Shown piece after piece: positions 60,869-64,000 of a stretch of DNA of 64,000 bases. The translations under genes were made by a program, and so were the position numbers. Positions within the stretch are counted from its first letter, which is position 1, and each line of letters starts with the position of its first letter. The notes under the pieces are model-generated. The model was not told where the DNA came from. It did no database searches and saw only the letters and a list, made by a program, of their open reading frames with translations. The stretch comes from an uncultured Chlamydiales bacterium (GTDB lineage Bacteria; Chlamydiota; Chlamydiia; Chlamydiales; JAAKFR01), in the NCBI GenBank assembly GCA_963699155.1, contig OY969414.1, positions 1,707,757 through 1,771,756 of the forward strand. The letters are read 5' to 3'.

Positions 60869-63800
60869 ATGTCTATTCGTGCATCCTGCGGCCGACCAGC
60901 CTCACCAGTTAATGAGCATCCACTTTTAAGAGTTTCTCCTCACGTCTCCTCAGAAACGCTGTGGAAAATATTAGCTCCCCTTATGTTTATCCCTATCACC
61001 TATCCCAACAAAGATTTACAGGGGAGAACTTTGCAACTCTGGAAATATAAAAATTCTCTACGCGGCACTCTCATCGACGCTGAAGGCCATATCCGCTTTT
61101 TTTCGGGAAAAAAAATCCGCAACCCTTGCGCTCTCGACGGAGAAGATCTCCATCTTTTAGCCAATCTAGAGAGCTCTGGCCTGCGCCAATGGCACCTGGG
61201 TTACTCTGAAGCTGCTGGTGAAATCTATATTTTCCCCTATTTAACCGCCGCAGGAAGAAAAGGGGATGTCGATCTGAGTCAAGGCAACAAAAGTCTCATA
61301 CAGGAGTTCAGAGGACGCTTTTCTGCTGCCATCGAACACCTCAAGGCGCGAGACTTGAGAGCGGCTCAAAGAGAAATAAAGGGTGAGGTTGTAAAATGGA
61401 ATAGAAGGGATGATTTCATCAAGTACAGAGGAGCAGATGGTAAAACAGCCAAACTACCTATCCCTGGAATAAAAAGAATAGAACCCTATCACCATTGGAA
61501 AGAAGTTCAAGAGACACAAAAAAATCTTGGAAAACGAGTAGAGGAACTAAACACATTATTAAAATCTTTCCAAAATAAAGAGAGAGGATACGCTCAAGAA
61601 GAATTCAACCAGACTAAACGCCTGCATGAAGATTATACCCATTTGCTGCGCCAAACTTATCGGTTTGTTCCTCCAGATGCCAAACCTCCTGACGGTTTCG
61701 AAAAAAGAACGCCGCTTCTACTCACCCACACGAAAGGTGGTGGTGATTCGCTGAGCACCAAACATTTTGAAAATATGCTCAGACAAACGGGGCTGATGGA
61801 TAGCTATAAGAGCAGTAATCCTCAGGCCTCATTTTCGGGAGGCGGCAGAGCAGATATTGGAGGTGTGGCGTGTAGCCCAGCCTATATCCAGGGATTGTTT
61901 GATCCCCCTGAAACTCTATTTGAAAGAGAGCACTATTTTGCTTTTCCGGTGGCTGGGAGCTCACCGCCATTTTCCGATGAGGAGTTGCGGCAGATCTTAC
62001 AGGAGCTAGCAATCGGAATCTATGTACATGATACCATCCCCTTTTTCAGCCTCCATTTTGATAGAGATTCCAACCTTTTTCCAGTGATTCACCCGGTGTA
62101 CCGCCACACATTAGTGGGCAGGGTGATCAGCATGCTCGACTATATGATGAAAGGCTATCTGAACGGAGGCGTTTTTCATGAGACCTTTATCGATGATTGG
62201 GCCAAAAACCCCCACTGGCCTGCTCAGAAGGAAAAGGGACGTCAAGAGCTGATCGATTTCCAAGACTATTGTCTCAAAGAACTGAACGACGGGGATCAGT
62301 CTTACTTTTCACTGAGAACCTTGAAATTGAGAAACTTGGAACTAGGAGAGTCTGATAAACCTGCTTCCCAAACCGACTTTTCAGGCTTCAGGAACTCTTT
62401 CCGTATTATCGGCAAGCAGAAGAGCTATCAGAAAGAGGGGCCTCTTTTCACCGTTGATACCGATTTTGATGTCCTTTATACGATCTCTCCTCCTGCTACC
62501 TATCAAGCAACAGATGGCAAAGCAGCCCCAGGCTATCAAGAACTGGAGGGACTTTTTAAAGAAATGGTCCAACGCATCCATGATCACATGCCTAAGATAC
62601 CTATCTGCAGAAGGTATTTTGAGATGCTCTCTGTCATTAACTTTTTTTCCGCCTATTTTTCAACAATGAAGCGTCATCGGAAAATTCCCAATCTTCTTCC
62701 CGCTATCTCGACAGGGAAAAGCAATGGCTGCCCTACCCTCTTTCCCCATTTGCCTATCCAGAAGTTCAGTCAAGAATTCATCCAGGCTAATTTCTTTGAT
62801 CTCATTCAATCGGCTCAAAGAGCCATTCAGACATTTGGACAAGATATCTATCTCTCACAACAGGCTAAACAAGATTTAACTGCCCTTCTGGAGATCAATA
62901 AAAAGGCTCTTCTACGTCAATTGAAGATGGCTCTTCAGTCTGAGATTTTAAAACGAGCGAGTAGACCACTGAGGATCTATTTTGAAAGCCAAAATCAGAA
63001 ACTGGGAGAGATAGTTGATAAGAATGAGGATATGTTAAGGAAAATAGTTTTGACCATCTTTGAGTTCTATCAGAAAAATCTAGCTAAACAAAAATCAGAG
63101 ATCGAAGCTCAAGCTCAAAAACTAGTGGTCCTCTTTGAACAAGAAAGACAACAGAAAATCACACAAGAACTGCATAAAGTATTTAACGAACTATGGCCAG
63201 AGTTGCTAAAGAGAATGGCTGATCACAATCAGGTAAAGAATCTCTATTCTATTCGCTATACAGTCTCCTTGCTTGAGTCAGATTTAGCTTCAGGAGAAAT
63301 CGAGATCGAGTATGGTAAGCGGGTTGTTGGTGGCTGTGGACTTCGGTTAAAAGAGCGGCCTTTGCACCCCTCATTTCAAGGGGCGCTCTTACTTCAACAA
63401 CAGGAAACTGCTTTACAAGAGATGCTAGAAGAGCGTTGGACCCTCTTAAATGGCGTAGGAAGCTCCTTTGCTACTTTGCGACTCAGTTTTGACGAACTCT
63501 CTCCAGGAGAGGCTAATGACTACTCCTGGATGAGGGATTGGCTATCGCCAGAAGCAGAAATGACCACTGATTCTGTTGAGCTATTGAGTGCTTTCGACGA
63601 TCCCTCCTCTCTGAAACTCCTGATCGAAAAGGGTCTACAGCCTGATCGCCCTGATTCCGATGGCTATACGCCTATTCATCTTGCTGCAATGCATGGAAGT
63701 CAAGCTTGTGTGCAACTTTTATTACAAAAAGAGCCTCGCTGCTTAAATGTAAAGAGTGTTCAGGGGCTCACTCCGCTGCTCGTTGCTATCGAGCACAATC

Positions 63801-64000
63801 AACTCTCCGTTGCACAGTTGTTAGTTGCCAATGGAGCCGCTTGGACGGTAACGAGAGAAGGGTATAATCCCCTTCATGTGGCTTTACAACTGGGCCATCT
63901 TGAAATGACTGAACTGCTTTTGACCTCTCCTCACCTGCGTTTTTTTATCAACGAAGATAGCGAGGAAGGTGGAACTCCACTCATGCTTGCCTCTGCATTA
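60869..64000 (+). CDS. Large effector-like protein: Ntox28-like toxin domain, central domain, ankyrin repeats (continues past window)
   Basis: Hand translation is open for 1044 codons; EHLKARDLRAAQREIKGEVV..PYHHWKEVQETQKNL at about 61331-61530; ankyrin motifs GYTPIHLAA, GLTPLLVAI, GYNPLHVAL, GGTPLMLAS after about 63650. Confidence 0.85.
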   Translation, partial: MSIRASCGRPASPVNEHPLLRVSPHVSSETLWKILAPLMFIPITYPNKDLQGRTLQLWKYKNSLRGTLIDAEGHIRFFSGKKIRNPCALDGEDLHLLANLESSGLRQWHLGYSEAAGEIYIFPYLTAAGRKGDVDLSQGNKSLIQEFRGRFSAAIEHLKARDLRAAQREIKGEVVKWNRRDDFIKYRGADGKTAKLPIPGIKRIEPYHHWKEVQETQKNLGKRVEELNTLLKSFQNKERGYAQEEFNQTKRLHEDYTHLLRQTYRFVPPDAKPPDGFEKRTPLLLTHTKGGGDSLSTKHFENMLRQTGLMDSYKSSNPQASFSGGGRADIGGVACSPAYIQGLFDPPETLFEREHYFAFPVAGSSPPFSDEELRQILQELAIGIYVHDTIPFFSLHFDRDSNLFPVIHPVYRHTLVGRVISMLDYMMKGYLNGGVFHETFIDDWAKNPHWPAQKEKGRQELIDFQDYCLKELNDGDQSYFSLRTLKLRNLELGESDKPASQTDFSGFRNSFRIIGKQKSYQKEGPLFTVDTDFDVLYTISPPATYQATDGKAAPGYQELEGLFKEMVQRIHDHMPKIPICRRYFEMLSVINFFSAYFSTMKRHRKIPNLLPAISTGKSNGCPTLFPHLPIQKFSQEFIQANFFDLIQSAQRAIQTFGQDIYLSQQAKQDLTALLEINKKALLRQLKMALQSEILKRASRPLRIYFESQNQKLGEIVDKNEDMLRKIVLTIFEFYQKNLAKQKSEIEAQAQKLVVLFEQERQQKITQELHKVFNELWPELLKRMADHNQVKNLYSIRYTVSLLESDLASGEIEIEYGKRVVGGCGLRLKERPLHPSFQGALLLQQQETALQEMLEERWTLLNGVGSSFATLRLSFDELSPGEANDYSWMRDWLSPEAEMTTDSVELLSAFDDPSSLKLLIEKGLQPDRPDSDGYTPIHLAAMHGSQACVQLLLQKEPRCLNVKSVQGLTPLLVAIEHNQLSVAQLLVANGAAWTVTREGYNPLHVALQLGHLEMTELLLTSPHLRFFINEDSEEGGTPLMLASAL

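Follow-up and report, generated by a model that had tools for sequence, protein, structure and literature searches.

A diverged Ntox28 RNase-toxin domain in a variable N-proximal slot of a giant ankyrin-repeat protein from an uncultured Chlamydiales bacterium

The stretch of DNA analyzed here, referred to as the window, comprises 64,000 nucleotides of contig OY969414.1 from an uncultured Chlamydiales bacterium (assembly GCA_963699155.1, positions 1,707,757 to 1,771,756 of the forward strand), whose genome is a complete single contig of 2,399,326 bases. The last 3.1 kb of the window hold the beginning of a giant gene for an ankyrin-repeat protein, in which a segment close to the N-terminus is related to the Ntox28 RNase toxins; this protein, its relatives and the genes around them are the subject of the present report. 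The open reading frame (ORF) starts with an ATG at position 60,869 of the plus strand and has no stop codon up to the window end, which amounts to 1044 codons, as already noticed in a first-pass annotation made from the sequence alone. That annotation had proposed retrieving the complete ORF, and reading the genome beyond the window gave a protein of 2135 amino acids (aa; L002:2626-9033 in the coordinates of the source-genome locus) with the frame intact throughout. The start codon is backed by N-terminal alignment with two relatives. In a Pfam search of the whole protein, Ank_2 scored 312.9 bits, spread over 11 stretches that begin at about aa 910 and reach the C-terminus, the first of the best stretches spanning aa 910–992; the ankyrin repeats had been placed near position 63,650 and are detected from about 63,596 onward. 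The features of this part of the window are as follows, with model confidence given as the predicted local distance difference test (pLDDT) or the predicted template modelling score (pTM).

60221–60868, plus strand: orphan ORF of 215 aa in the slot that the partner gene family fam2 occupies in relatives; its TAA abuts the ATG of the giant gene
60869–64000, plus strand: window part of the giant gene (aa 1–1044); the ORF runs on to L002:9033
60869–60949, plus strand: N-terminal leader (aa 1–27), modelled as disordered, pLDDT below 50 at residues 1–9 and 14–18
60950–61252, plus strand: conserved N-domain (aa 28–128), alpha+beta, ending in the family motif P.L.AAG, pLDDT mostly above 90
61271–61678, plus strand: divergent Ntox28 (PF15605) RNase-toxin domain (aa 135–270), assigned by profiles, alignment and model
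61352–61504, plus strand: span of the equivalents of the active-site residues of the E. coli 536 (EC536) toxin (profile alignment to 5j5v_B, review table, column counts), with D162 at 61352–61354, Y207 at 61487–61489, H209 at 61493–61495 and E212 at 61502–61504
61409–61471, plus strand: insert of 21 residues (aa 181–201) that lengthens the loop from GEVV to PYHH and forms a beta-hairpin in the model
61754–63613, plus strand: conserved central domain (aa 296–915), pLDDT 82.2, pTM 0.81
63596–64000, plus strand: start of the ankyrin-repeat region (Pfam), which extends past the window to the C-terminus

Two Ntox28 toxins have been characterized, the C-terminal toxin of CdiA from E. coli 536 (PDB 5J5V, 5J43), which is a tRNA anticodon nuclease, and Tox28 of Ruminococcus lactaris. 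The proposal that the segment behind the N-domain fits the Ntox28 pattern was built on four strings, KARDLRAAQRE (aa 159–169), GEVV (172–175), PYHHWKEV (206–213) and TYRFVPP (263–269), all of which are found where they had been quoted (window 61331–61675). With its own profile score the window copy stands right at the border: relative to the curated Pfam cutoff of 25 bits for Ntox28 (PF15605), aa 101–300 reached 24.8 bits, and two pieces found in the genome scan (profile positions 26–46 and 53–111) summed to 26.2 bits and were flagged as being over the cutoff. As the direct score is borderline, the assignment was secured via relatives. Of 30 returned loci, 28 were scanned with Pfam, L023 and L029 having been dropped for lack of the central motif; nine of the 28 family members had, at this very position, an Ntox28 score above the cutoff (75.4, 72.7, 42.5, 38.2, 37.8, 37.3, 31.3, 29.0 and 28.0 bits), four remained below it with 17.5–22.6 bits, among them the window copy with 22.3 bits, and 15 had no Ntox28 match at all. 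Run against 1.84 billion representatives, a profile of the 13 family cassettes with any Ntox28 hit gave E ≤ 1e-3 for 560 proteins, of which 257 reached E ≤ 1e-10; these were either giants carrying the domain at about aa 120–250 or proteins carrying it at the extreme C-terminus. Among 19 matches sampled, all 16 non-giants were Ntox28 proteins (58–119 bits), 11 of them with the domain at the C-terminus or no more than about 7 residues away from it, and several with the domain behind WXG100, PT-HINT, RHS or SpvB/TcdB modules; the three giants in the sample all combined Ntox28 with ankyrin repeats. This profile, in which the window copy is included, retrieved canonical Ntox28 at an E-value of about 1e-20.

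The best PDB match of the 13-cassette profile was 5j5v_B, annotated as ‘tRNA nuclease CdiA’, at E 0.016, and single-sequence PDB searches with the window segment and the two best family cassettes returned nothing relevant. In the alignment to 5j5v_B, D162, Y207, H209 and E212 correspond to D155, W176, H178 and E181, the residues that PMC9086364 lists as the active site of the EC536 CdiA toxin and of which His178, when changed to Ala, gives the inactive control used in PMC5562914. The claim that equivalents of the catalytic Asp and of HxxE are present is therefore upheld for D162, H209 and E212. Taken together, the scores of the relatives, the cassette profile and the match to 5j5v_B show that the window segment is a true Ntox28 domain, albeit a far diverged one, positioned near the N-terminus of an ankyrin-repeat protein (aa 135–270 of 2135), as the first-pass annotation had it. 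Two relatives already bear an automatic PF15605 label in the protein collection.

Structural modelling of aa 1–300 (mean pLDDT 79.4) gave an alpha+beta fold for the N-domain (aa 28–123) and, for the cassette, helices at 136–156 and 160–170, strands at 183–187 and 193–197, and helices at 209–235 and 239–264, an order of elements that matches the one described for the EC536 toxin in PMC9086364. Foldseek found nothing at E ≤ 1e-3 with this model; the EC536 entries were placed 4th and 9th, at E 0.2, and no other match listed had a higher probability. In VIA-align, 5j5v_B was superposed with Z 9.2 and an rmsd of 3.0 (94 of 96 residues aligned) and 5j43_F with Z 9.1 (99 of 101). Superposition on the EC536 toxin had been suggested as a check; these alignments do not stand out from those with ordinary helical bundles. 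In the VIA-align searches with the aa 1–300 model, the match lists were taken up by the helical cassette. The modelled fold of the cassette agrees with Ntox28 without discriminating for it, so that membership in the family rests on the sequence profiles.

The giant protein belongs to a larger family. A relative of its first 900 residues is encoded in 55 of 400 genomes sampled from the phylum, all of the same order, which places the observed ORF far beyond chance. The members share one layout, consisting of the leader, the N-domain, a variable cassette, a central domain of about 600 aa and a long ankyrin region, and the borders of the cassette slot are marked by P.L.AAG at the end of the N-domain and by approximately ..TDSY..NP..IGGV at the start of the central domain. 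At least six sequence types occupy this slot among the 28 members, namely Ntox28 and at least five others:

Type with invariant E, I-D and E..H.D: L006, L012, L031 and the giants in L042 and L043
Type with GH..D..N..W: L014, L025, L028, L030, L032 and L034
Type common to L008 and L017
Single examples: L009, L010 and L018

For the types other than Ntox28 no Pfam match was obtained even at E up to 1, and profiles of two of them had no PDB relative. BLAST single linkage had lumped L006, L012 and L031 with Ntox28 through the hybrid L012, and these were separated by hand; the cross-tabulation omits L014, L020, L022, L026 and L032, whose fetched pieces contain no recognizable N-domain. The hybrid itself (L012:3454-4017, minus strand, genome G133) consists of a domain of the ...EPNHVDF type, behind which a remnant (13.5 bits) of the Ntox28 C-terminal half is left, and from its sequence looks like a scar of cassette displacement. 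The picture of a toxin tip that was moved once into an effector, as drawn in the first-pass annotation, does not hold in view of these data, since Ntox28 is one state of a family-wide variable slot. A literature search, with subscription journals outside its coverage, found no account of this family, and among the listed titles of papers that mention Ntox28 none deals with this phylum.

Comparison of trees indicates which part of the protein is exchanged. When the five cassette labels are mapped onto a carefully built central-domain tree (25 rows), 12 changes are required, compared with a mean of 13.1 after shuffling, and 51 of 200 shuffles were as low; the well-supported branches alone force at least 4 changes of Ntox28. 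In a quick tree of the N-domain (23 rows), 7 changes sufficed versus 11.4 after shuffling, with none of 200 shuffles as low. The N-domain thus travels with the cassette, whereas the central domain does not, and judging from these sequences it is the head of the locus that seems to be exchanged as a unit. The window protein provides an example of its own: its N-domain is sister to that of G147, a relative of the same genus (support 98), and the central domains of the two fall into different well-supported clades.

Upstream of the giant genes, the type of neighbor varies with the type of cassette. Surroundings of 20 kb were compared for ten related genes, six with and four without Ntox28, which had been picked for long contigs. 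A conserved family of helical proteins, fam2, is encoded directly upstream in all six Ntox28 loci and in none of the four others. In the shorter loci, fam2 preceded 10 of 11 Ntox28-type genes, the window gene being the exception, and two other cassette types have an upstream family of their own each (2/2 and 2/2). In the phylum sample, 19 of 401 genomes contain fam2, and 13 of 400 contain an Ntox28 domain that passes the cutoff; reading of the coordinates located fam2 directly upstream, on the same strand and ending 400–800 bases before the domain in 12 of these 13 genomes, and the contig bearing the thirteenth match is short. In genome G245 the two kinds of locus occur together.

By sequence, fam2 has no relative in the PDB, and its sole family match is HEAT_2, which one copy reaches with 32.7 bits (cutoff 27.7); HEAT repeats figure among the immunity protein types tabulated by Zhang et al. 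2012 (PMC3482391). We modelled the complex between the cassette of a relative, G098, and its own fam2 protein, both entered as alignments. The pair scored 0.93, compared with 0.25 for the best of three controls; among solved complexes 116 of 157 attained this mark, as did 2 of 215 mismatched pairs, a calibration that is only rough for alignments of our own. Three runs shared at least 78% of the contacts, and the pLDDT of the partner was at least 90. The modelled interface on the G098 cassette involves residues 34–35 (the Asp equivalent), 42, 59, 61–62 and 65–66, of which 59 and 61–62 flank the His, such that the predicted contacts lie on the face around the catalytic His and Glu. It is unlikely that the model merely echoes the solved EC536 toxin–immunity complex, because fam2 has no sequence likeness to any solved chain. 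The model therefore supports binding of fam2 to the Ntox28 cassette of this relative. As fam2 is nearly always found upstream of Ntox28 in the relatives and is predicted to bind the cassette, it is probably the immunity gene for the Ntox28 cassette.

Three further observations concern fam2. Directly upstream of a giant with a sub-threshold Ntox28 domain, genome G096 carries a tandem array of fam2 genes (C30:5123-9238) that recalls poly-immunity loci. In G147, the relative of the same genus, a single ORF contains the fam2 unit in duplicate. Genes upstream of giants with another cassette type (G133:C106:23278-23445 and G110:C50:98-265) share only the first ~60 residues with fam2; by this sequence criterion, the partner proteins may be composed of a common N-terminal module and a cassette-specific remainder.

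On the whole, the best explanation, to which we assign a probability of about 0.7, is that the family represents a polymorphic-toxin-like system turned round, with the window copy as a diverged Ntox28 member. According to this model, the payload would sit near the N-terminus and be matched by a specific partner gene immediately upstream, for Ntox28 a HEAT-like protein predicted to cover the active-site face. The entire head, i.e., partner gene, N-domain and cassette, would be swapped between scaffolds by recombination at the conserved borders. The payload would most likely be a metal-independent RNase that cuts tRNA after export, fam2 would shield the producer's own tRNA until then, and the ankyrin region would most likely bind host proteins. 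In the source genome, fam2 would have been lost and an orphan ORF would have come to stand in its position, next to a cassette with a 21-residue insert and changes in two conserved motifs.

A number of points weigh against this explanation, some of them concerning the family and most of them the window copy. The co-variation of cassette and fam2, though consistent, is statistically unsecured, with only three independent contrasts and a median p of 0.25 (fam2 goes the same way as Ntox28 in 2.8 of the 3 contrast pairs on average and never in the opposite direction). The N-domain tree is a quick one calculated from 101 columns, and nine forks of the scaffold tree are left without resolution. The complex described above is a model of a relative's pair and not of the protein of the source genome, and its calibration holds only roughly. 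The direct Pfam score of the window copy is borderline and amounts to only 17.1 bits on the whole protein, and in the structural comparison 5j5v_B and 5j43_F rank only 22nd and 29th among generic helical bundles (Z 9–12). Residue counts were taken from 36 Ntox28 rows, 10 from the giant family and 26 canonical. The Asp (D162 column) is only moderately conserved, with D in 19 of the 36 rows. In the window copy a His precedes the catalytic His, which is unique among the 36 rows; this position is D or N in 25 of 26 canonical and 7 of 10 giant-family rows, the other three having E, V and H. In the last helix, LLRQTY stands where the consensus has LLDxSE, and an insert of 7 residues precedes it, so that the last conserved acid of the published Ntox28 motif has probably been lost, as far as the alignment tells. 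The 21-residue insert (aa 181–201) is found in no other family cassette, in a loop whose length varies across the family. In the central-domain tree the window gene is placed on a long branch (1.6). Finally, neither a fam2 gene nor a remnant of one was detected in the complete source genome (0 matches in six frames at E ≤ 1 with the profile that does recover fam2 in other genomes).

In an alternative reading, the Ntox28 segment of the source genome would be a decayed remnant: once the nuclease had lost its activity, the partner could be dispensed with and disappeared, and the protein would now work only via its central domain and ankyrin region. We consider this rather unlikely, albeit a possibility to be taken seriously. 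It would account for the window copy being one of only four among 13 Ntox28 cassettes below the cutoff, for the insert that no other cassette has, for HH instead of [DN]H and LLRQTY instead of LLDxSE, as well as for the long branch and the absence of fam2. The same-genus relative shows HxxK, and its Pfam score is likewise borderline (24.7 bits for the whole protein, 28.0 bits for the N-terminal piece). Here, however, it has to be considered that Lys occupies the Glu position also in 4 of 26 canonical toxins, so that changes of this Glu to Lys need not inactivate the enzyme. Moreover, the three residues best tied to catalysis are kept in the window copy, the frame is intact over 2135 codons and the model folds confidently. 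The catalytic His (H209 column) is retained in 35 of the 36 rows, and the acid of HxxE (E212 column) is E or D in 31 and K in 5. Of the motif published by Zhang et al. 2012 (PMC3482391), given there as D, K[DE], [DN]HxxE and E, the window copy keeps the D, RE (R168–E169; R is present in 22 of 26 canonical rows) and HxxE. By alignment it is the most diverged Ntox28 copy of the family, and the loss of fam2 in the source genome coincides with this divergence. The missing partner and the most diverged domain fit a loss of activity as well as they fit host activation or auto-inhibition. Weighing both sides, we regard it as slightly more doubtful than probable that the tRNase of the window copy is still active; the alternative would be a remnant, attenuated or dead, carried by a scaffold that itself still functions, and the probability that is left falls to re-pairing with the orphan ORF or to other readings.

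The first-pass annotation had seen no obvious immunity gene. For the source genome this stands, as fam2 is absent and the ORF found in its slot is unrelated to it; for the relatives, which carry the partner upstream, it does not. The orphan 215-aa ORF contains one hydrophobic stretch (aa 114–132), gave no match in Pfam or NCBIfam, and had no homologue in 25 relatives, three of the same genus included. Its kinship to fam2 was tested and rejected, hhalign against the fam2 profile giving a probability of 0.14%, and a short F.G..WD echo of an invariant fam2 motif may be due to chance. It is conceivable, although distinctly unlikely, that this ORF encodes a new, lineage-specific partner (an immunity protein or chaperone) that has replaced fam2 in the course of the toxin's divergence. 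Its location in exactly the partner slot, on the same strand and with the stop codon abutting the ATG of the giant gene, would be in line with such a role, and so would the family-wide change of partner gene with the type of cassette. From one system to the next, immunity proteins are as a rule unrelated, and fam2 itself is without a solved relative. A hydrophobic, possibly membrane-spanning stretch would, however, be unusual for a nuclease immunity protein, neither homologue nor family match was found in the searches just mentioned, and the ORF may not be a real gene. The head of the window protein is inferred to be related to that of the same-genus relative, which retains its partner gene.

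Another way to account for a toxin domain without protector was to assume an active, host-directed tRNase that needs no immunity gene, since it would be auto-inhibited by the insert or the flanking domains or would be activated in the host only. The retention of D162, H209 and E212 and the absence of fam2 in the source genome are compatible with this idea, as are the ankyrin repeats and the intracellular markers of the genome (see below), which fit a host target. Latency also has a precedent in the Ntox28 family, as the EC536 toxin needs the activator CysK of the target cell; according to PMC9086364, another Ntox28 toxin does not. A CysK-type route, however, calls for a free C-terminal tail (PMC9086364), which an internal domain cannot supply: in the giant protein 1865 residues follow the Ntox28 domain. 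No feature examined points to either inhibition or activation, and this part of the first-pass annotation was thus not substantiated. In addition, relatives with better preserved domains keep the partner, suggesting that the producer is endangered and the domain not intrinsically silent, and loss of the partner goes along with the greatest divergence of the domain. We therefore judge the assumption unlikely.

That the giants are directed against other bacteria, for example rival strains within one host cell, and not against the host, appears very unlikely to us, even less probable than a partner role of the orphan ORF. A variable cassette, a specific adjacent partner that is predicted to bind it, and exchange between loci are hallmarks of kin systems, and the tandem partner-gene array in G096 has its counterpart in poly-immunity loci. 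On the other hand, the protein carries ~1200 residues of ankyrin repeats and no known interbacterial delivery module, with no delivery route being evident, and a nuclease with a universal substrate requires self-protection whatever its target.

The reading of a polymorphic-toxin-like system turned round has to accommodate the remainder of the protein and the genes that follow it as well. The central domain is the best-conserved part of the giant protein and folds confidently (pTM 0.81); PFFSLHF (aa 391–397) and GGCG (aa 821–824) are invariant motifs in it. Neither a solved relative nor a family in Pfam or NCBIfam was found for it, the ESM Atlas gave no usable match, and Foldseek returned nothing at E ≤ 1e-3. 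A wide structural search yielded a best Z of 6.6, confined to a helical sub-bundle, although at a length of 620 residues matches to single domains may be missed. The idea that the central domain, with its invariant His396 and Cys823, acts as a releasing protease found no support in this search, given that the best match was Z 6.6 on the helical sub-bundle only. Trafficking or pre-toxin domains (TPS, PAAR, WXG/LXG, RHS, PT-HINT) had no Pfam match in the 2135-aa protein. The leader (aa 1–27), disordered in the model, is a possible secretion signal. The source genome encodes two strong TLC ATP/ADP translocases and has export-gate genes of the FHIPEP family; on account of these genes it fits an obligate intracellular bacterium equipped with a type III or flagellar-type apparatus, perhaps an amoeba-associated chlamydia.

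Downstream of the giant gene, where an immunity gene might have been sought, a gene for a SecA-like ATPase of ~1100 aa follows on the same strand in all 11 loci inspected, the source genome included. In the source genome this neighbor is located as follows:

L002:9044-12340, plus strand: SecA-like ATPase of 1098 aa, SecA_DEAD 122 bits, with a unique N-terminal region of 370 aa

NCBIfam SecA models score 242 bits, compared with a cutoff of 862, so this is not the housekeeping SecA. Its product may serve in export or unfolding, or may be an effector itself. Between the giant and the SecA-like gene, five of ten related loci (L035, L037, L038, L040 and L044) contain a further gene, fam3, of 234–271 aa and without Pfam family, which is absent from the source-genome locus. 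In L040 (genome G341), the giant gene has a DDE transposase gene of the opposite strand as its immediate upstream neighbor, and the SecA-like gene of this locus is broken into two ORFs, with one TGA and one TAA within the match. The source-genome locus continues with a pair of small hydrophobic ORFs, paralogous to each other and 154 and 160 aa long (L002:12357-13316, minus strand), which adjoin a 689-aa RHS-repeat protein (166 bits; L002:13374-15440, minus strand) 3.3 kb past the SecA-like gene; together these are possibly the remnant of a classical polymorphic toxin. On the other side, minus-strand ORFs of 555, 387 and 210 aa at window positions 56451–59345 and 59527–60159 had no Pfam match at E ≤ 0.1. 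As the flanks share no gene families with the locus of the same-genus relative, the operon resides in different surroundings in the two.

With the SecA-like gene taken into account, the family could be a true toxin–immunity system of reversed geometry, run by obligate intracellular bacteria of this order. It would be led by the immunity gene, a portable head of N-domain and toxin cassette would recombine onto the giant scaffold, and a dedicated SecA-like ATPase would export or unfold the product, which may be used against the host and rival strains in the same host cell alike. This more far-reaching version is tentative, and we would sooner bet against it than on it. If it were true, the window copy would amount to a natural experiment, a toxin bereft of its immunity gene. 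The source genome in any case raises the question whether a tRNase domain can be kept without its protector.

How do these proteins relate to known systems? With the characterized Ntox28 toxins the window copy has in common a homologous domain, the modelled order of structural elements and the equivalents of D155, W176, H178 and E181. It differs in being internal and N-proximal instead of forming the C-terminal tip, and in its 21-residue hairpin insert, HH and LLRQTY. The phylum is not listed for Ntox28 in the 2012 table of Zhang et al. (PMC3482391), and the giants extend the known range of the domain by one phylum.

Classical polymorphic toxins (CdiA/CdiI, Rhs, WXG/LXG) likewise combine a conserved scaffold with a variable toxin module and an adjacent gene that co-varies with it, in the giants one modelled to bind the cassette; the scar-like hybrid in L012 and the tandem partner arrays add to the resemblance. 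The geometry, in contrast, is reversed, with the module N-proximal, the partner upstream and the N-domain travelling with the module, and known trafficking or pre-toxin domains are lacking. A novel central domain with ankyrin repeats as scaffold, and the constant SecA-like neighbor, have no counterpart in the classical systems either.

The third point of reference is provided by effectors of intracellular bacteria. Zhang et al. 2012 (PMC3482391) remark, in their treatment of Amoebophilus, Wolbachia, Legionella and others, that effectors may hold internal polymorphic-toxin domains, unaccompanied by immunity genes or neighboring cassettes, and they mention SecA-like helicase-related domains among such effectors. 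Giant repeat-bearing proteins of endosymbionts with internal toxin domains are what the present family shares with them; what sets it apart is the dedicated partner gene of its Ntox28 relatives and the exchange of cassettes. No description was found in the literature searched for the N-proximal slot, the upstream co-varying partner, the travelling N-domain, the SecA-like neighbor or the 600-residue domain. Two rules are thus broken at once, the one by which polymorphic toxins carry the toxin as a C-terminal tip with a downstream immunity gene, and the one by which endosymbiont effectors with borrowed domains of this kind are said to go without immunity genes. The unnamed cassette types, with their conserved His, Asp and Glu residues, may be new toxins, and the family brings to light a confidently folded domain of 600 residues without solved relative, along with a conserved SecA-like partner.

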